This document shows, one piece after another, positions 160 through 57,838 of a stretch of 64,000 bases of DNA. Below the pieces are notes generated by a model. That model did not search any database, was not told the DNA's origin, and saw nothing but the letters and a program-made list of their open reading frames with translations. A program made the position numbers and the translations under genes. The stretch is from an uncultured delta proteobacterium (GTDB lineage: Bacteria; Desulfobacterota; DSM-4660; Desulfatiglandales; Desulfatiglandaceae): NCBI GenBank assembly GCA_963747555.1, contig CAVVFZ010000029.1:8876-72875 (forward strand). The letters run 5' to 3'. How positions within the stretch are numbered: position 1 is the first letter of the stretch; each line of letters opens with the position of its first letter.

Positions 160-366
160 GTATCCTGTTTAAATTTTTCGACAACGCAATTGGTGTCAGG
201 AAGCCATTTCGTCACGAGGTCTTTTTTGCTGCCGCATCTGATTCCTAAACCGCAAAGAGATGAGTCCTTGATGGACGCGTTGTCCTTCCCCAAAATAAAT
301 ACCATCCTTCCATCCACGAAATGGGGTTTCCAACCCATTTTGGTTTTCCGCGAAACTGATAAGATT
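160..366 (+). mobile_element. Degenerate copy (E) of the ~255-bp palindromic MITE family defined in this window
   Basis: The left terminus GTATCCTGTTTAAATTT at 160 and the core CCATTTCGTCACGAGGTCTTTTTTGCTGCCGCATCTGATTCCTA (204-247) align with the left arms of the copies at 15396 and 56308. The right half is diverged, so the right boundary is approximate. Confidence 0.5.
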
Positions 367-2219: not shown

Positions 2220-2473
2220 GTATCTTATGCAAGAATCCCGGCAGGAATGAAGTCACGAGGTCTTTTTTGCTGCCGCATCTTGGATAAACCTTCACGGTCC
2301 GTTGAGAGGCCCTTCCATGCTGGTACAACAAACCCCCTCGAGATTCCTCCTTGGTCGTACCAGCATGTAAGGACCGGTGCTCCCATGGGAATCAGATGCG
2401 GCAGCAAAAAAGACCTCGTGACGGAATGGTTTTTCCTGGTCATCCTTTTGCTACCAGGAATTGAATAGGATAC
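2220..2473 (-). mobile_element. Full-length MITE copy C, inverted relative to the copies at 15396 and 56308
   Basis: Termini are GTATCTTATGCAA (2220) and TTGAATAGGATAC (2461-2473). The 28-bp arms GTCACGAGGTCTTTTTTGCTGCCGCATC / GATGCGGCAGCAAAAAAGACCTCGTGAC are present. The flanking 8-mers AACAAGAT (2212-2219) and ACCAAGAT (2474-2481) match at 7 of 8 positions. Confidence 0.85.
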
Positions 2474-15112: not shown

Positions 15113-15395
15113 AATTCCTTTTCCTCCTCTTTCGGTTTAGATTTAACGATTACGTTATCGAACAGATCCACATACGCATTATAATATTTTTACTTAATGA
15201 TACAATGCCAAATAAAAGGGAATGGGCGGAATCATGTATTTTGCCCTCAAAAGGGAGGTAGAACGCAAACAGAGCCCTTTGACGGAATGACTTTGCTGAA
15301 TCTAAGTGGTTTCCAGAGATTTTGAATAGGACACAGCATGGCCTGGCCCTGCTGCATTAACTCTGGAAAACGAGGAAAAAAAATGATATAAAAAC

Positions 15396-15652
15396 GTATT
15401 TTATTCAAATTCCCTGGCAGGGAAATGCGGAATCAGGAAACCCATTCCGTCACAAGGTCTTTTTTGCTGCCGCATCCAATTCCTACGGCAGCACCGGCTC
15501 TTTAGGCTGGTACGGACAAGTGGATGAAACTCAAGGGGTTTGGTTGTATCAGCCTAAAAGCGCGTCTCCACGGTCGGTGAAGGTTTATCCAAGATGCGGC
15601 AGCAAAAAAGACCTCGTGACTCCATTACCGCCAGGATTTTTGAATATGATGC
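15396..15652 (+). mobile_element. Full-length MITE copy A
   Basis: Termini are GTATTTTATTCAAA and TTTGAATATGATGC, with the conserved 28-bp arms and an apical stem. The flanking 8-mers ATAAAAAC / CAAAAAAG are only 5/8 identical, which suggests an older insertion. Confidence 0.85.
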
Positions 15653-24930: not shown

Positions 24931-25424
24931 GATATCTTTTCCTCTTATTCCCCCGCCACATGCTTCTCCAGTTTTACCGCACAGACCATGAAATCGGGTG
25001 TTTTGGATACGGGATCAAGAAAGGGACATGTGGTCCTGACACATTTATAGTCCATAATAAATCCTCTCTTTAAGAATCAGCCAAGTTCATTATCAAGAAA
25101 TTGGCTATGCCATATACGACATATTGCATTGCAAAGTTTTCCTACCCGGGTTCGATTGTCAGGATTTCCGTTTAGGGGGATTAAAAGATATGCTTGCTTA
25201 ACATTTCCTGAAAGGAAATTCTCTTAGGAGCGTTATCCTGCGATCCCAGGCTCTGGCTGGAAAATTCCACAGCGATTTCGATAACTGAAGTTTCACATGA
25301 AGGCACCCAGTTCGTCTGCCTATATCAGAACGCTTTTAACATGTCAACACAGACATAACCGATAGATGTGCTTTTCTCTTTTTCCAGTTGCGGCATTATC
25401 CTTAGTGTGCTAAGAAATTCATTC

Positions 25425-25794
25425 ATGAATCAGGGAACCGCATTGCATATCCGCTCAAAAATCTGGATTGAGGATGAATCGGGACAGGTGGTTTTTGGTC
25501 TTGGCAGGCTCCGAATCCTTGATGCCATAGATCGCCTGGGCTCCATCCAAGGGGCGGCCAAGGAATTAAAAATGAGTTATCGGGCGATCTGGGGGAGGAT
25601 TAAGGCAACGGAAGAACGCCTTCACCAGTCCCTTGTTGGTCAGGAACGTAGGAGGGCACAGAGGAGGAGGATCCCAGTTGACGCCCTTCGCATTAAACCT
25701 GCTGGTACATTTCCGCCACCTCCATCACCGCATCACCACCCTGTCCGATTCAGAATTCGAAAAGATCATGGCGCCTCATTTTGAATCGGATTAG
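25425..25794 (+). pseudogene. ModE-N-terminal-like winged-helix regulator, frame broken by a 1-nt indel near 25623-25626
   Basis: GLGRLRILDAIDRLGSIQGAAKELKMSYRAIWGRIKATEERL is followed, in the +1 frame, by SPLLVRNVGGHRGGGSQLTPFALNLL, which is the expected family continuation. The annotated frame instead reads as Arg/Pro-rich nonsense. Confidence 0.7.
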
Positions 25795-25877
25795 CGTTCT
25801 GCTGATGATATTATCCCCCCATCACAACCGATTTTTCACCTTCTTTGGCTATCATAATTTTTTCAGGAGAGATAACC

Positions 25878-26967
25878 ATGCGGCATTATAGCGGAAAAGT
25901 GTTTCATTTTTTTAACCTTACCCCTTTGTTCTGCCTTTTCATGTTTACCACAGCACCCCTTCAGGCCATGGAAAGCAACGACTGCCTGGGCGCTATCAGC
26001 CTGCAGCTTGCAAGAGGCATGGCGATACCCCTGGAACACGTAGCCCAAAGCATCAAGGCGTTGGCCGCAGAGTACGTCCGCATCTATGAGATGACCCGGC
26101 CCATGGACCAGTCGGAAAAAGGCCTTTGGATGAAACAGCCCCTGGAAAAAGGAAAAACCATAAGTTTCCGACGATTTTCAACCGGCTCTGAACCGGCTTT
26201 TCAAGCGCCGGTTCCCGCCTATCTATTTTACGACGGCCGCAATATCACACCCCAGGTGACCCGGGAGCTAAAGACCTTTGTGGCACTGGTTCCGTTATTC
26301 AGAGTGGCCTACGAAAGCTTCCATTATTCCTGGGTCTACCTGACCACGGTTGACGAGGCCTTTTTCATCTATCCCTATCTCCCCTTAAAGGATGCAGTCA
26401 ACAATTTGCCCCCGACGGAGCAGGACTTTCTACAGGGTAGCGGATTTTGCAGGAAAGGGTTTCAGTTGGACACGGCCCTATCTCGATCTCGCGGGCGCCG
26501 GCATGATGGTAACGGTTTCCTATCCGATCTATGGCCCGGAAAAGCTCCTTGGGGTGATCTCCAGGGACATTACCCTGACGCAGCTTTCCTACAGGTTGCT
26601 GAAGCCAGTCGCGGGTCGATCCGGAAATCTGGTCAGCTTGATCATGGACAAGGAAGGTCTGGCCATCGGGACCAACAGGGCAACCGCCACGAAAGAGATC
26701 AACACGCTCAACACCGAGGCAGGCAGCGCCGTTTTATATTACCGTACCCCTCAGGGGCTCAAATCTCTTGGAAGTCGAAAAGCGGTTGGCTCGTCCAACG
26801 GCCTGTTCAACGAGGCAGGGGAGGAGGCACTGGCCTGTGTGAAAAAAGACCCGAATGCCGAGATCCGGCTTTTGGATGTAAAGGTAGGGCAAACGACACA
26901 CAAGGCGGCTGTGGCAAAAATTTCCGCAACCGGCTGGTTGTTGATTACGATTGATACCAATTCCTGA
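25878..26967 (+). pseudogene. Secreted/membrane-anchored Cache (PDC)-like sensor domain protein without output domain, frame broken near 26427-26430
   Basis: The N-terminal signal/TM is followed by ...LPPTEQDF. The sequence continues in another frame as YRVADFAGKGFSWTRPYLDLAGAGMMVTVSYPIY..LLGVISRDITL, which is a Cache signature. One extra nt sits in or next to a TTT run. Confidence 0.7.
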
Positions 26968-27028
26968 TGGGTCGCCCGTACCCATTCGGCATCGGCGACC
27001 TGTTAAGGATGAATAATAATAGCTTCGT

Positions 27029-27132
27029 TGTACCAGCATAAAAGAACCTCTCGACGGTCGATGAAGGTTTATCCAAGATGCGGCAGCAAAAAACCCTCGT
27101 GACTGCATTCGATCCATTGTTTTTGAAGTGCA
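27029..27132 (+). mobile_element. 5-prime-truncated MITE copy F (right arm only)
   Basis: GTACCAGCATAAAAGAACCTCTCGACGGTCGATGAAGGTTTATCCAAGATGCGGCAGCAAAAAACCCTCGTGAC aligns with the right arms of copies A, B and C. The terminal repeat is degenerate. Confidence 0.7.
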
Positions 27133-27334
27133 CGATTTCATAGATAAGGCGTCCATTTTCAGTGCTCTGAAAAAGACCGACGCTGTCTGGAGAGCGGCGG
27201 CTATGCTGAGAATTGGAGAGGGTACCCTTTATCGTAAGATCAAGACCCACAAACTTGAGAGCCGAAAGAAAATTTTCGTCCGCATCATATTTTTTTTGTA
27301 CAAATTTGGCTCATTGCTGATTAACATGAGATGA
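27128..27334 (+). pseudogene. Relic of the C-terminal Fis-type HTH of a sigma-54-dependent (NtrC-family) activator
   Basis: IFSALKKTDAVWRAAAMLRIGEGTLYRKIKTHKL matches the HTH_8 pattern (AL..t.gN..rAA..LGI.R.TLYRKlK). There is no AAA+ domain upstream. The ORF starts with GTG inside the truncated MITE. Confidence 0.5.
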
Positions 27335-32307: not shown

Positions 32308-32561
32308 GGTTTACCCTCCCTGAATGAAGTTTTGGAAAATCCCTTAAACAATGGCCACGGCCGCCCGGCGCTCTACTTGTGGGGCTGCCGTGTTTAAGTA
32401 TAGCGAAAAGGAATCTCGGGATCAACGCTGAAATATTCCGGTTTGGGAATCCTATTTGATATTTTGCCGGGCCATTTCAGATTTCCTTTTGCCTAATGAA
32501 GATTAGAGGGTATAAAGAGATACATATGCAAAAGGATAGAATCATCAAGGAGGATTCATAG

Positions 32562-39743: not shown

Positions 39744-39839
39744 GTATCCTATTCAAATTTCCTGGTAGCAAAATGATGACCAGGAAAAACCATTCCATCA
39801 CGAGGTCTTTTTTGCTGCCGGGATTCTTGAATAAGATAC
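39744..39839 (+). mobile_element. Internally deleted mini-MITE copy D (96 bp) with perfect 8-bp target-site duplication
   Basis: The left 72 nt are identical in layout to copy C's left end (GTATCCTATTCAAATTTCCTGGTAGCAAAATGATGACCAGGAAAAACCATTCCATCACGAGGTCTTTTTTGCTGCC). They are joined directly to the right terminus GGGATTCTTGAATAAGATAC. AAAAATGC occurs at 39736-39743 and again at 39840-39847. Confidence 0.85.
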
Positions 39840-42951: not shown

Positions 42952-44688
42952 GTGGAAAAGCAGGGAAATTTACCTGACGGCGCGGAACTAAGGAGAATTG
43001 CCGAAGCGGCTTTTAAAGCCTCATCCAATGAAGAGGAAGATCTTTCAAGGATTTCCCCCGAAGACAAGGAAAAGCTGATTCATGAGCTTCGCGTACACCA
43101 GATAGAGCTGAAAATGCAAAACGAAGAGCTCCGACGGGTTCAGTGGGAATTAGAAAAGGCCCGGAATCGCTATTCGAGCCTTTATGACTTTGCTCCGGTC
43201 GGCTATTTTACAGTCAGTGAAAAAGGAATCGTTACGGAGGCAAATCTCACGGCCGCCACCTCGCTGGGAATGGAAAGATCTTTCCTTATGGGCAGTCCAT
43301 TCAACCGTTTTATCCTGCAAGAGGACCAGGATATTTTTTATTTATACCGAAAACAGCTGATGGATACGAAAAAGCCTCAGTCCTGCAGACTGCGAATGGT
43401 TAAAAAAGACGAAACCGTTTTTCACGCGAATCTGGAATCCAATATTATTGAAGAAGAGGAAGACTACCCCGGGCAGGTCAGAGTGGTGGTCAGCGACATA
43501 ACCGAACAGAAGGACCTGGAAAGCCAGCTTCGGCAAGCGCTGAAAATGGAAGCCATCGGCACCCTTGCAGGCGGAATTGCACACAATTTCAATAATATAC
43601 TGGCTGTGATGATCGGTTTTACCGAGCTTGCACTCGAGGACGCGGAAAAAGGGACCCCGTTGGCGGATTATTTGAAAGAGGTCCTGATCGGGGGCCAAAG
43701 AGCAAAAATCATGGTCCAGCAGATTTTGACTTTCAGTCGGAAGGCTCCTCGAAAGGTGGCGCCGGTATGGCTGGAGGCATTGATCCAGGATTCCGTCAGG
43801 ATGTTAAGGGCGACGATACCCGCGGACATTGAAATCGGAGTAAAGATGAACTCGGCCGTGGCCCCCTGCGTACTGGGAGACGAAATGCAGATTCATCAAA
43901 TCATTATGAATTTGTGCATCAACGCCGCCCATGCCATGGAAACCAAAGGGGGAAAAATAACGATCGGTGTGGACGCCGTTACATTAGACAACGATCAAGC
44001 ATTCAAACTCTCGAAGCTTCCACCCGGGGAATACGTCAAACTCAGCGTCGGCGACACGGGTTCCGGCATTTCCACTGAAAATATCGATCGAATCTTTGAA
44101 CCCTATTTTACCACCAAGGAGCCGGACAGGGGGACCGGAATGGGCCTTGCGGTTGTTGCGGGGATCGTAAAGGCACACAAAGGGCACATTGTAGTGATGT
44201 CTCAACCGAAAAGGGGAACGACCTTCACCGTATTCTTGCCCATGCATGAAAATGTGGAGTGTACGCCATCTGATGCTCCGCGGGAGACGCTGCCTGGAGG
44301 CACGGAACATATCCTTTTCATTGACGACGAATTGTCCATTGTGAAACTGATCAAAATGATACTCGAGAAACTTGGCTACCAGGTTACCACAAGTACCGGC
44401 AGTCTTGGGGCGCTGGAATCTTTTCGCATGGCGCCACATAGGTTTGATCTGGTAATTTCCGACATGTCCATGCCGAATATGACAGGCGACAGGCTGGCTG
44501 CCGAGCTGATAAAAATCAGGTCCGACATCCCTGTGGTACTTTGCACGGGTTACAGCAAAAAAATATCAGAAAATTTGACCGCGGAAATGGGGATCAAAGC
44601 ATTTGCTTACAAGCCTATTGACAAGGCGGAACTGGCCAAAATGATCAGAAAAGTTCTGGATGAGGCCAAAGGCTCAACGAAGGAATGA
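42952..44688 (+). CDS. Hybrid sensor histidine kinase / response regulator with PAS domain (GTG start)
   Basis: H-box AHNFNNIL, the N and G boxes (GTGMGLA), and a receiver domain (DLVISDMSMPNMTG, VVLCTGYS). Confidence 0.9.
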   Translation: MEKQGNLPDGAELRRIAEAAFKASSNEEEDLSRISPEDKEKLIHELRVHQIELKMQNEELRRVQWELEKARNRYSSLYDFAPVGYFTVSEKGIVTEANLTAATSLGMERSFLMGSPFNRFILQEDQDIFYLYRKQLMDTKKPQSCRLRMVKKDETVFHANLESNIIEEEEDYPGQVRVVVSDITEQKDLESQLRQALKMEAIGTLAGGIAHNFNNILAVMIGFTELALEDAEKGTPLADYLKEVLIGGQRAKIMVQQILTFSRKAPRKVAPVWLEALIQDSVRMLRATIPADIEIGVKMNSAVAPCVLGDEMQIHQIIMNLCINAAHAMETKGGKITIGVDAVTLDNDQAFKLSKLPPGEYVKLSVGDTGSGISTENIDRIFEPYFTTKEPDRGTGMGLAVVAGIVKAHKGHIVVMSQPKRGTTFTVFLPMHENVECTPSDAPRETLPGGTEHILFIDDELSIVKLIKMILEKLGYQVTTSTGSLGALESFRMAPHRFDLVISDMSMPNMTGDRLAAELIKIRSDIPVVLCTGYSKKISENLTAEMGIKAFAYKPIDKAELAKMIRKVLDEAKGSTKE

Positions 44689-44856: not shown

Positions 44857-47754
44857 ATGAAATTTAAAACAAGCTACTTTCTTTTGCCCATCCTGATAGG
44901 GTTGTTCGGGTATATGGCCTTTTCTGTTTATGACGAAGTAAAAGACAAATCCATAGCAGAATTCAATAAGCAACAGATGATTTTAGCGGAACAGGCTGCA
45001 AAGGGTATCGAAAGATTTTTCAATGGTCTCCACCATGGACTTTCCTATCTTTCCAATGCGGGGTCTGTGGTTTCCTTAAATGATCAAGGCAAAAAATTAA
45101 TGCAGGATTTCTACGGCGAGAGACATAACGAAATCAAAGCCATTTCCCGTGTCGATGCAACGGGCAGAATTATTTTCACGATTCCGTCTAATCCCACGAT
45201 TCTCGGTAAAGACATCTCCTCCCAGCAACACATACAAACTATCCTGCAAACTCATGAGCCCGTTGTGAGTGATGTTTTTAACTCTGTGCAGGGTTATCGT
45301 GCCCTCGCCTACCATGTGCCGGTGTTTGAAAATAAGATCTTTCAAGGGACTATCGGCGTTTTCATTCCATTTGAAACCCTCGCAAAGGAGTACCTGGAAA
45401 AAATCAGGATCGGCAAAAGCGGATACGCCTGGGTACTCAGTGAAAAGGGAGTGGAGCTCTACTGTCCGGTTCCAGGGCACACCGGTAACACCATTTTTGA
45501 AACATCCAACAAATTTCCTGCGGTTTTAGCCATGGCAAGGGAAGCGCTGAAAGGCCAGCGGGGAACAACTTCATACACCTATGCCAATATCCGGGGGGAA
45601 AACGTTGAAAACATTAAAAAGTTAGCGGTATTTCTGCCCATTGATTTAGGGAATACGTTCTGGTCCATTGTCATTGCGACACCAGAAAGCGAGGTCCTGG
45701 GCAATTTGACAGGGTTCAGGAATAAGTTATTCCTTATCGTGGCGTTACTGATGATCACATCGATAGCTTATTCCTATTATCTGGTGAAGGCCTGGGCTAT
45801 TTTAAAGGAAGAATCAAAACGCAAACGGGTAGAGGAAGCGCTGAAAGAAAGAACGACCTTCCTTGACAAGATCATCGACAGTTCAGCGGTGAGCACATGG
45901 ATATCCGATGAGAAGGGAACCGTCATCAGGACGAATCCTGCCTGTCTTGAATTTTTTGGCGGCACCAAAGAAGAGGTCATCGGGAAGTATAATCTTTTCA
46001 AGGATGTCGTCCTTGAAAAGCGGGGGTTCATGCCGGACATCAGAAGAGTCTTTGAAAAGGGTGAAGTTGCCAACATCCTGGTGGATTATGATTTCGGCGC
46101 TGTTGATCACGTGGAGGTGAAAAAGGCCACACACAAGATTGTGAACTCGATCTTCACACCCGTTTTGGACAGTGACGGGAAAGTTTGCAACGTAATCGTC
46201 CAGACCATAGATCTGACTGACATCAAGAATGCGGAAAAGGCGCTTCGGAAGAGCGAAAAGAAATACAGAAGACTGGTGGACAATGCCGTGGTGGGAGTTT
46301 ATCAAGTAACCAAAGAAGGCAGACTTCAATTCGTGAATGAAAAAATGGCGGAGATGTTCGGGTATGACAAACCGGAAAGCTTTCTGGAGGAGGTTCCCAA
46401 TATTACCGAACTCTATGTCCGTCCGCAAGAAAGACAGGGCGTTCTTCAGGAAATGGATGAAAAGGGTCTTATTCACGGAAGGGAAGTAGAATACAAGAAA
46501 AAAGATGGCAGTAATATCTGGGTCGCCCTTTCCGCAAGAAGGGTAATCGATGATGGAAAAATATTTTACGAAGGGTTGATGGAAGACATCACGGAGCAGA
46601 AAAAGCTCGAAAATGAACTGCAACAGGCCCAGAAAATGGAGGCCATCGGGACGCTTTCGGGAGGAATCGCCCATGACTTCAACAACATCCTGGGGATCAT
46701 CCTGGGGAACACGGAACTGGCCATGGACGATATCCCAGACTGGAATCCCGCCAGAAGAAATCTGGAAGAGGTGCGCGAGGCCTGTCTCAGGGCAAAGGAC
46801 CTCATTCAGCAGATCCTCAGTTTCAGCCGTAAGACGGAATCGGAAAAGAAGCCGATTAAAATAGTTCCTATTGTCGAAGAATCGCTCAGGTTATTGCGGG
46901 CATCTATCCCCACCAGCATAGAAATCCGCAAACATATGGATACCGTGGAAGACACAATCCTTGGAAATCCCAGCCAAATCCACCAGATTCTCATCAACCT
47001 TTGCGGCAATGCAACCCATGCCATGGAAGAGACCGGAGGAATTCTTGAAGTTCATCTCCATAATATCGTCCTGGATGCGCAGGAAGCCTCCCGATACCAC
47101 CAGATAGGCCCTGGTCCCTACCTGAAACTGATCGTGCGGGATACGGGCCATGGAATCGATGCCGCGACCATGAAAAGGATATTTGATCCCTACTTCACCA
47201 CCAAGGATGTGGGAAAGGGCACGGGGATGGGCCTGGCAATAGTTCACGGCATTGTAAAAAGGCACAACGGGGCCGTTACCGTTCAGAGCGAACCGGGTAA
47301 GGGAACCTCTTTTGATATTCTTTTTCCCCTGATCGGGCAGGCTGACACGGAAGAGGTGAAAATGAGCCATGACCTGCCGGGGGGGCACGAAAGAATCCTT
47401 TTTGTGGATGATGAAAGTTCCATGGTTGAATTCAACAAACAGAGACTGGAGCGCCTTGGCTACTCGGTTGAAACCAGAACGGATCCTGCAGCGGCATTGG
47501 CTTTTTTTGCTTCCGACGCGGATGCATTCGACCTGGTGATCACGGACATGGCCATGCCCCACATGACAGGGGATGCACTGGCCCGGGAACTCCTGAAAAT
47601 CCGTCCGGACCTGCCGATTATCCTCTGCACCGGATACAGTGCAAAAATTTCGGAGGAGAAAGCCATGAAATTGGGAATTAAGAAATACATCGAAAAGCCC
47701 ATCCAAATGGAAATTCTGGCAAGATCGGTCCGGGAAGTCTTAGAGCCTGTTTGA
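44857..47754 (+). CDS. Hybrid sensor histidine kinase / response regulator with periplasmic Cache-like domain and PAS domains
   Basis: Two TM helices flank a Cache-like region (GYAWVLSEKGVELY). There are PAS repeats, the H-box AHDFNNIL, GTGMGLA, and a receiver domain (DLVITDMAMPHMTG). Confidence 0.9.
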   Translation: MKFKTSYFLLPILIGLFGYMAFSVYDEVKDKSIAEFNKQQMILAEQAAKGIERFFNGLHHGLSYLSNAGSVVSLNDQGKKLMQDFYGERHNEIKAISRVDATGRIIFTIPSNPTILGKDISSQQHIQTILQTHEPVVSDVFNSVQGYRALAYHVPVFENKIFQGTIGVFIPFETLAKEYLEKIRIGKSGYAWVLSEKGVELYCPVPGHTGNTIFETSNKFPAVLAMAREALKGQRGTTSYTYANIRGENVENIKKLAVFLPIDLGNTFWSIVIATPESEVLGNLTGFRNKLFLIVALLMITSIAYSYYLVKAWAILKEESKRKRVEEALKERTTFLDKIIDSSAVSTWISDEKGTVIRTNPACLEFFGGTKEEVIGKYNLFKDVVLEKRGFMPDIRRVFEKGEVANILVDYDFGAVDHVEVKKATHKIVNSIFTPVLDSDGKVCNVIVQTIDLTDIKNAEKALRKSEKKYRRLVDNAVVGVYQVTKEGRLQFVNEKMAEMFGYDKPESFLEEVPNITELYVRPQERQGVLQEMDEKGLIHGREVEYKKKDGSNIWVALSARRVIDDGKIFYEGLMEDITEQKKLENELQQAQKMEAIGTLSGGIAHDFNNILGIILGNTELAMDDIPDWNPARRNLEEVREACLRAKDLIQQILSFSRKTESEKKPIKIVPIVEESLRLLRASIPTSIEIRKHMDTVEDTILGNPSQIHQILINLCGNATHAMEETGGILEVHLHNIVLDAQEASRYHQIGPGPYLKLIVRDTGHGIDAATMKRIFDPYFTTKDVGKGTGMGLAIVHGIVKRHNGAVTVQSEPGKGTSFDILFPLIGQADTEEVKMSHDLPGGHERILFVDDESSMVEFNKQRLERLGYSVETRTDPAAALAFFASDADAFDLVITDMAMPHMTGDALARELLKIRPDLPIILCTGYSAKISEEKAMKLGIKKYIEKPIQMEILARSVREVLEPV

Positions 47755-56259: not shown

Positions 56260-56307
56260 ACTGTATTCACAAGCATTTGCATCAAGTAGATCCATGAGGG
56301 CGCGAAT

Positions 56308-56565
56308 GTATCCTATTCAAATTTCCTGGTAGCGCGGAGTACACAGCCGGCGAACCATTCCGTCACGAGGTCTTTTTTGTTGCCGTATCTGATTCCTACG
56401 GATGCGCCGGTCCTTCTATGCTGGTACGGAAAAATGGAGGTATGACAACAGCTTCCTTGTACCAGCATAGAAGGACCTCTCGACGGTCTGTGAAGGCACA
56501 TCCAAGATGCGGCAACAAAAAAGACCTCGTGACTCCATTTCTGCCAGGATTTTTGAATAGGATGC
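56308..56565 (+). mobile_element. Full-length MITE copy B (archetype) with perfect 8-bp target-site duplication
   Basis: Termini are GTATCCTATTCAAA and TTTGAATAGGATGC. GCGCGAAT occurs at 56300-56307 and again at 56566-56573. It has 28-bp basal arms and a perfect 19-bp apical stem, GGTCCTTCTATGCTGGTAC / GTACCAGCATAGAAGGACC. Confidence 0.9.
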
Positions 56566-57326
56566 GCGCGAATGTGCCGAGATGGGTAAGAACTGTTTTC
56601 CACGATTTTGGAAAACACAAAATGATCGAAACCAGGTTCATTGTTCGCCAGACGTGTAAGGAGTTCTTCGGCGGAGATTTGATAATCTCCCCCGGAAACA
56701 TACCTGCAAAACCATCCGCGCACTTATCATTCTAAGTTCGTCCACAGGAGATTCACTCCCTTTCCAGCGTTCTGGAATCATCACGAGCCATAACTTGATT
56801 GAATTATTTCCTGATGGAAAAATACTTGGACCTCTCCGGTTAGTCAAGTCACTTCAGACCCTGAAAGGGGCCACACTCGGAATCATTCCATTTGAATGTG
56901 CAGGGGCGACAAACCCTTGCCATGACCAGTCTATAACAAGGGCATCTGTTTTCATAACCGTAAACCGGTAACTGGAAACCGTGGACAGCTACTTTCTTTT
57001 CCCATCAGCGCCCATTTTGCGAATGGGGCAAAACCCTCAAAGTTTCCTTTTCAGGAAGGAAAACAAATGACAATAGTTTCCTCATGGACAAGGAAACTTT
57101 GTGGCCATGATCATGGCCAACTTTGTCAACGCGTCTTACAGCGTGCAGGGTGTGGATACGGCAAAAAGAGAAGTGAGTGGTCTGGAAAATGTAAAGAGCC
57201 TCCATCCGGAGGCCCTCGATGCCCTCGTGCTAAACGATTGGGACCCGGGTTTAATTCCGACAAACACAAAGGTTATCCCGGCCTGGCAATTTCTTCTGTT
57301 CGGCTTCAAATAGAAATCGTCTTCCC

Positions 57327-57751: not shown

Positions 57752-57838
57752 GTATCCCAATTCAAATTCCCCGGGCCAATCCCAAATCCGGAAAATCCCC
57801 TGCCGCCGGGGTGCTTGAACAAGGCAGCTTAATTGCTC
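57752..57838 (+). mobile_element. Degenerate internally deleted MITE copy G
   Basis: GTATCCCAATTCAAATTCCCCGGG ... CTGCCGCCGGGGTGCTTGAACAAGGCAGC parallels the two ends of mini copy D. The flanks AATTGACT / AATTGCTC are only loosely similar. Confidence 0.45.

Follow-up and report, generated by a model that had tools for sequence, protein, structure and literature searches.

Positions 56300-56573 of the DNA analyzed here (64,000 nucleotides in all, referred to below as the window) are occupied by a palindromic repeat with inverted ends and short flanking duplications, and relatives of this repeat recur at other loci of the same window. The locus raises the question of whether such repeats are mobile units or structural elements of the host and, if they are mobile, which enzyme moves them. 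An earlier note, made by inspection of the sequence, had described a ~255-bp palindromic MITE. That description agrees with the present results, namely the lack of coding capacity, the 8-bp duplications, an orthologous empty site, and a DDE-encoding element with the same ends. We consider it very probable that the repeat is a MITE family moved in trans by the transposase of a ~2-kb single-ORF IS66-like IS.

Copies of the repeat in the window

Copies within the window were established by repeat finding, direct reading, and multiple alignment. The 14-mer GTATCCTATTCAAA, with up to two mismatches allowed, occurred nine times in the window compared to 0.32 occurrences expected, and none of 100 shuffles reached this number; the internal 22-mer CACRAGGTCTTTTTTGYTGCCG had eight exact occurrences compared to 0 expected. 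Eight MITE loci were distinguished, of which three are full-length, two are minis, and three are truncated. The element measures 250-265 bp and its minis 77-96 bp, and the full copies in the window are mutually 78-81% identical.

The full-length copy at the locus in question, copy B (56308..56565, forward strand, 258 bp), begins with GTATCCTATTCAAA and ends with TTTGAATAGGATGC. By sequence reading, it is bordered on the left (56300..56307) and on the right (56566..56573) by the 8-bp target-site duplication GCGCGAAT. Its left terminal inverted repeat, GTATCCTATTCAAATTTCCTGGTA (56308..56331, forward strand), equals the left end of the autonomous IS in metagenomic locus L123 described below, and the right terminal inverted repeat (56542..56565, reverse strand) reads TGCCAGGATTTTTGAATAGGATGC on the forward strand. 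Further inside, the left copy of the conserved core, CACGAGGTCTTTTTTGTTGCCG (56364..56385, forward strand), forms helix 4 by pairing with the inverted right copy of the core at 56510..56531 (reverse strand).

The other two full copies are copy A (15396..15652, forward strand, 257 bp), which has no recognizable target-site duplication, and copy C (2220..2473, reverse strand, 254 bp), whose flanking 8-mers AACAAGAT and ACCAAGAT match at seven of eight positions. The internally deleted mini D (39744..39839, forward strand, 96 bp) lies between perfect target-site duplications, AAAAATGC and AAAAATGC; in the left arm it is 97% identical to copy C, and a shared CTGCCG marks the deletion junction. Among the truncated copies, copy E (160..247, forward strand) retains the left ~90 bp of the element, and copy F (~27024..27132, forward strand) consists of the right half, has a degenerate terminus, and lies where the sequence is rearranged compared to a related MAG. 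The third is a truncated inverted left arm of ~75 bp (~15260..15334, reverse strand) located 61 bp upstream of copy A, so that two insertions fall within one divergent intergenic region. Finally, mini G (~57752..57826, forward strand) is degenerate and has no target-site duplication; the one point in its favor is its resemblance to 77-nt minis from metagenomes (score 11 compared to a shuffle mean of -15.8 with an sd of 4.4).

Most of the coordinates proposed in the earlier note stand unchanged, namely those of the three full copies (with 2220-2473 inverted) and of the mini at 39744-39839. Its count of seven or more loci was also right, the eighth being the truncated arm at ~15260-15334. Copy E, which had been extended to ~366, ends near 247. 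For copy F, given as 27029-27132, the right half is present but the left limit moves to ~27024, and the degenerate mini, given as 57752-57838, is supported only by the similarity to the 77-nt minis and has its right limit probably near 57826. Among the 8-bp duplications reported at copies B, D, and C, those at B and D are perfect, whereas the one at C holds at only 7/8. The terminal inverted repeats, described as 14 bp long, are real, but the conserved ends extend over ~24 bp.

All copies in the window are intergenic with respect to long ORFs, as had been stated before; for example, one is found in the interval between a transaldolase gene and a HAD hydrolase gene, and another intergenic position is upstream of a CheB-CheR-PAS gene. 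The ORFs that cross MITE copies are only unsupported frames of 90-190 aa. A tblastn search with the L123-type IS transposase found no transposase homologue in the window, in line with the view that neither a transposase ORF within the copies nor an autonomous partner is present in this stretch. A comparison of the whole window with Rfam gave 0 matches at the gathering score, and thus the suggested check of the consensus against RNA families returned no match; the sensitive mode yielded only sub-threshold miRNA-hairpin models (17.7-27.1 bits compared to gathering scores of 90-100). The core pattern had no match in viral contigs. The window also contains a 93-nt direct repeat (44092-44184 and 47179-47271, 71% identical) located within the neighboring ORFs 42952-44688 and 44857-47754. 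These two ORFs are probably paralogues with a common conserved motif, and the 93-nt repeat is unrelated to the MITE.

Related genomes and the unoccupied site

Two window proteins had no exact match in the assembly collection. A genome scan with the core 22-mer, covering one genome per species, identified 58 loci, nearly all of them from two MAGs, 'uncultured delta proteobacterium MFD02416.bin.3.208' (CAVVEP01) and 'Desulfatiglandales bacterium La6_metabat2.031' (JBBSAR01). One locus from a Roseobacter MAG (L015) matched the 22-mer without an nhmmer match and was treated as a chance occurrence. The contig CAVVEP010000015.1 is 90-95% identical to the window at 22.4-34.2 kb, and therefore the window comes from a close relative of CAVVEP01. 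Using an nhmmer model built from the three full window copies, we found 83 copies or fragments in the window and the 58 loci, with at least 53 and at least 23 of them in the two MAGs. In the MAG with at least 53, the covered sequence amounted to 37 blocks and 296 kb. These numbers, which are lower bounds, sustain only in part the suggestion that the family is very abundant genome-wide, and they do not obviously extend the density of one copy per 9 kb across the genome. The nearest relative of copy B is a copy in the related MAG that is 96.5% identical and occupies a different locus (L055), so that the subfamilies predate or cross the species split.

Flanking 8-mers were compared for 33 full copies from the window and the two MAGs. 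The duplication was perfect (8/8) in 17 of the 33 and held at 7/8 in 7 more, giving 24/33 with at least 7/8, whereas the best match among the next 8-mers outward was 4/8. None of the 17 perfect duplications extended to 9 bp. The 8-bp duplications anticipated in further genomic copies were thus found. Two copies (L053 1441-1698 and L038 5661-5913) lack direct duplications and have partly reverse-complementary flanks, such as GGCAAAAA... and ...TTTTTGCC, which suggests either that they inserted into a hairpin already present or that an inversion took place afterwards.

The search for empty sites, also proposed in the earlier note, was successful at one locus. In CAVVEP010000015.1, a 262-bp MITE copy (L014 1670-1931) is flanked by GTATGCAT and GTATGCCT, and the orthologous position in the window (32526..32531) is unoccupied. 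When the element and one of its duplicates were subtracted from the L014 sequence, the alignment with the window at 32526-32531 was continuous through the junction. The filled site in the MAG and the empty site in the window show directly that the element inserted as a unit, through an 8-bp staggered cut, and that this MITE insertion is polymorphic between the window and the related MAG. At a putative second empty site (window 25.2-25.3 kb compared to L017 2961-3216), the flanks are too diverged for alignment.

The window at 25024-27308 is rearranged with respect to the 90-95% identical MAG contig (L017 1-5364 and L014 7191-8000). The MAG version contains two MITE fragments around an interval of ~2.9 kb, in which we observed a methyltransferase-like ORF and an ORF with a CxxxCxxC motif that, judging from its sequence, may resemble radical-SAM proteins. 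The counterpart in the window is a 369-aa ORF (25845-26954) without a Pfam match, followed by the MITE half F. The MAG copies L017 2204-2418 and 2961-3216 (full or partial) are missing from the window. At concatenated coordinates 551-2912 of the L017/L014 region, the MAG ORFs overlap and continue in different frames, which looks like long-read assembly frameshift errors rather than real pseudogenes.

Autonomous elements with the same ends and their transposase

Scanning of metagenomes with the terminal 22 nt, GYATCYTATTCAAAWWYMMTGG, returned at least 120 loci. Two of them, L112 and L123, contain two outward-facing ends separated by ~1.95-2.0 kb, with one ORF (575 or 555 aa) between them. Among the matches listed, ~18 complete elements of 1.92-2.07 kb were present, each with one ORF of 555-575 aa; a search for a longer element with the same termini had been proposed in the earlier note. 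All complete ~2-kb elements start with GTATCCTATTCAAATTYCCTGGTA and end with TTTGAATAGGATAC, and they have the ~24-bp ends in common with the MITE; the first 24 nt of the L123 element are identical to those of copy B. Beyond the terminal ~33 nt, the MITE and the recovered ISs have nothing in common. The contigs that bear the ISs have a G+C content of 35-46% compared to ~51% in the window.

Full or partial homologues of the L123 transposase (44-85% identity) were detected by tblastn in ~30 of the metagenome loci listed, and wherever the end pattern led to a long element, the transposase encoded there belonged to this one clade. The same search found no transposase homologue in the window or in ~430 kb from the two related MAGs, which leaves current mobility in this lineage putative. 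Additional end matches in the genome loci comprised minis only and no long element. A 3.2-kb candidate for an autonomous copy in the L017/L014 region was rejected, since its two MITE fragments, 2.9 kb apart, enclose methyltransferase-like and other host-type ORFs and no transposase.

Perfect 8-bp duplications surround the elements in L078, L059 (the same locus as L111), and L147, and these are the only 3 of ~18 metagenomic ISs with a clean duplication. The other IS copies are mostly located on 2-3-kb short-read contigs of a multicopy repeat, and their flanks are plausibly chimeric. On an 8.16-Mb contig, the element of a transposase homologue has AATTAAGT on both sides. Taken over all elements, perfect 8-bp repeats flank L078, L059, L147, L179, and L180.

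All five transposase proteins tested matched the PF03050 domain (DDE_Tnp_IS66) with 36.8-62.3 bits compared to a cut-off of 23.1. Residues D240, D369/D370, and E483 are invariant in a set of five homologues that are 30-71% identical. The presence of a DDE transposase in an autonomous element with the same ends corroborates the DDE-type transposition footprint that had been read from the duplications. The NCBIfam equivalog model transpos_IS66 matched the transposase with an E-value of 8.5e-29, but its score of 100.8 bits is below the cut-off of 180. The transposase is encoded by a single long ORF and has an N-terminal coiled-coil region; no other IS66-associated module was matched in the transposases by Pfam. 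In L123, only one ORF of at least 80 aa is present, with no tnpA and no tnpB.

More than 5,200 database proteins match the transposase at E <= 1e-10. The few matches with names come from Desulfosarcina, Desulfobacterales, or 'Deltaproteobacteria' MAGs, and they are labeled only as 'transposase' or 'hypothetical protein'. Homologues on plasmids of Nostoc (37-42% identity) and on those of Agrobacterium and Rhizobium (~31%) are likewise annotated merely as 'transposase'. One of them, a homologue with 42% identity and the same bare annotation, is located on the plasmid NZ_CP091914.1 of Nostoc sp. UHCC 0870 (L180 378-2181). The ends of this Nostoc element are GTATCGG...GGGGATAC (GTATC...GATAC), and GTTTATTT is duplicated on both sides, indicating that both the GTATC ends and the duplication of 8 bp extend to the wider clade.

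The hallmarks of the IS66 family are inverted repeats of 20-30 bp beginning with GTAAGCG and direct repeats of 8 bp (PMC11946415). The ends of the partner IS, at ~24 bp, are within this 20-30-bp range; they start with GTATCC (GTATCG in Nostoc), which has only GTA in common with GTAAGCG. The missing tnpA and tnpB, a GTAT start instead of the canonical GTAA, and the NCBIfam score below the cut-off speak against an IS66-like partner, as do the lower G+C content of the IS-bearing hosts, the restriction of the common sequence to the terminal ~33 nt, and the small number of ISs with a clean duplication. We call the clade IS66-like and single-ORF because it has its domain, the length of its duplication, and a GTA start in common with IS66 and is otherwise different. 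The termini, which the earlier note did not recognize from a named IS family, can now be assigned to this single-ORF clade with an IS66-type DDE domain. Single-ORF IS66 elements are placed in the ISBst12 subgroup, and we take the layout of the partner IS, by its ORF arrangement alone, to be an ISBst12-type organization.

On AT-rich metagenomic contigs (21-43% G+C), the 24-bp ends were also found around unrelated interiors, with lengths of 77, 121, 174, 210, 271, and 294 bp. These unrelated MITE families with GTATCCTATTCAAATT... ends, many of which have perfect 8-bp duplications, include a 294-bp family (L079 172-465, L100, L103, L117, L120, L139, and L165), a 271-bp MITE (L072), a ~121-bp family (L077, L104, and L126), and a ~77-81-bp family (L060, L133, L138, and L173). 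The occurrence of the same ends around unrelated interiors suggests that the transposase clade has repeatedly spawned MITEs.

Origin of the family and comparison with known systems

The whole MITE is a palindrome with arms of ~125 bp, and the 258 nt of copy B fold into one long hairpin, with computed energies of -144 kcal/mol as RNA (z -16) and -75.5 kcal/mol as DNA (z -12.6). When 48 full copies were aligned, 89% of the consensus hairpin was paired. Pairing amounts to 95% in helix 1 (the terminal 13 pairs), 96.5% in the core helix, and 94.4% in the central helix. The conserved ends of the consensus are ~24 nt long, and the internal core is conserved at least as strongly as the termini. Changes on both sides were observed in 29 pairs compared to 20 +/- 2.3 in shuffles, none of 500 of which reached 29. 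The number of cells with double changes was 104 compared to 47 after shuffling and 23-49 when the 3' partner was slid by 1-3 columns. This arm covariation could mean either that the hairpin is under selection or that the arms evolve in concert at the DNA level.

Such features are also what can be said for the alternative that the repeats are structured RNA or DNA elements of the host (terminator or stabilizer hairpins, or regulatory sites), with the palindrome as the functional unit and mobility incidental or past: the fold is very stable, the arms show the 29 double-change pairs, the core is conserved no less than the termini, and all copies are intergenic. However, the 8-bp duplications and the empty site mark insertion as a discrete unit, and the signals of a host function were not found. 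The copies have no orientation bias with respect to flanking genes (12 same and 11 opposite) and no preference for a gene arrangement (counts of 13, 11, 10, and 9, with convergent 9 compared to divergent 11). With consensus G-U pairs set aside, G-U and A-C mismatches are equal (34 versus 34 columns), giving no strand-specific RNA signal. A simple scan of copy B revealed neither a promoter nor a terminator, and Rfam gave no match. A terminator or promoter role was accordingly rejected on the lack of orientation or context bias and of a consensus site in copy B, and a host structural origin in general appears improbable.

The identity of the mobilizing enzyme was weighed in the same way. Several IS families make 8-bp duplications, and no IS66-like transposase was found in the host sequence covered (the window and ~430 kb from the related MAGs), both of which are compatible with movement by a different resident family that duplicates 8 bp (e.g., ISL3, IS256, IS1595, or IS6), the match to the IS66-like elements being convergent. 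In contrast, copy B and the L123 element have the same 24 nt at their left ends, ~18 independent IS copies with these ends are found among the matches listed, one transposase clade is encoded in every long element with the end pattern, and the GTATC ends and 8-bp duplication are kept in distant homologues; we consider a convergent match very improbable. As for the possibility that the copies are products of in situ decay of full-length ISs by internal deletion, rather than a self-amplifying unit, deletion does take place, as is evident from the minis and truncated copies. Nevertheless, 48 full copies have one ~255-bp architecture in common, past the outer ~33 nt the MITE interior bears no relation to the recovered ISs, the copies are found at different loci with separate duplications, and independent deletions are not expected to converge on a single palindromic interior, which leaves decay in place barely conceivable.

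The repeats themselves, their duplications, the insertion polymorphism, and the ends in common with a transposase-bearing element are direct observations. From these, we infer that the IS66-like clade moves the copies and that a source copy exists or existed in this lineage. Under the preferred explanation of a MITE family mobilized in trans, the ~24-bp ends (GTATCCTATTCAAATTYCCTGGYA) would be the binding and cleavage sites of a transposase with an IS66-type DDE domain supplied in trans. Integration would occur by an 8-bp staggered cut, and gap repair would generate the 8-bp direct duplication. The family would be old and split into subfamilies, and it would also be the source of the deletion minis and truncated remnants.

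A more far-reaching proposal, which we offer tentatively and regard as rather unlikely, concerns the recurrent compensatory changes in both arms across subfamilies and species. The palindrome may be actively maintained, either because mobilization by the IS66-like transposase needs a hairpin or cruciform or because the host has co-opted it. Combined with the repeated origin of unrelated MITEs from these 24-bp ends, in hosts whose G+C content ranges from 21% to 51%, this would point to a distinct and unusually promiscuous GTATC-ended subgroup of IS66-like elements. To our knowledge, the mechanism of the IS66 family is poorly understood.

The MITE family can serve to mark recent changes in the genomes of an uncultured deltaproteobacterial lineage of the Desulfatiglandales and sulfate-reducer type, and it is a source of assembly breaks and annotation noise, the latter in the form of spurious 90-190-aa ORFs through the copies. 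It also provides a clean link between a MITE and the little-studied single-ORF IS66-like transposases, whose recognition and cutting of DNA could be approached with the conserved 24-bp end as a ready substrate, and the arm covariation is a testable hint that secondary structure matters. Current understanding is not overturned by this family. In the searchable literature, no paper was found that contains the terminal string, connects MITEs with Desulfatiglans, or clearly describes a MITE family derived from IS66. By comparison with Rfam and the literature, the family is new as a catalogued instance, and DDE-IS-derived MITEs are well known as a kind. The present analysis now identifies the partner family, locates an orthologous empty site, shows how broad the end-defined clade is, and describes the arm covariation.

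Correia elements duplicate TA, and REPs are 20-40 nt long, without such terminal inverted repeats and without target-site duplications. The window MITE resembles known bacterial MITEs, such as Correia/NEMIS of Neisseria, RUP of Streptococcus, MITEPsy of Pseudomonas syringae, and MITECca01 of Cardinium, in that it is small and non-coding, has terminal inverted repeats and target-site duplications, occurs in many intergenic copies with strong hairpin potential, and has ends in common with an autonomous IS (PMC3189936, PMC9769881). In contrast to these families, its sequence is unrelated, its duplication is 8 bp, and its arms are complementary over ~125 bp and not only at the tips. The partner IS is similar to the single-ORF (ISBst12-like) members of IS66 in its PF03050 domain, 8-bp duplications, GTA start, coiled-coil ORF, and length of ~2 kb (PMC11946415), but it differs from IS66 in its ends (GTATCC instead of GTAAGCG), in scoring below the NCBIfam cut-off, and in lacking tnpA and tnpB. 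The REP/BIME sequences mobilized by RAYT (TnpA-REP) transposases are comparable as abundant intergenic palindromic repeats, whereas the window MITE is distinguished from them by its 8-bp duplications and its DDE partner.
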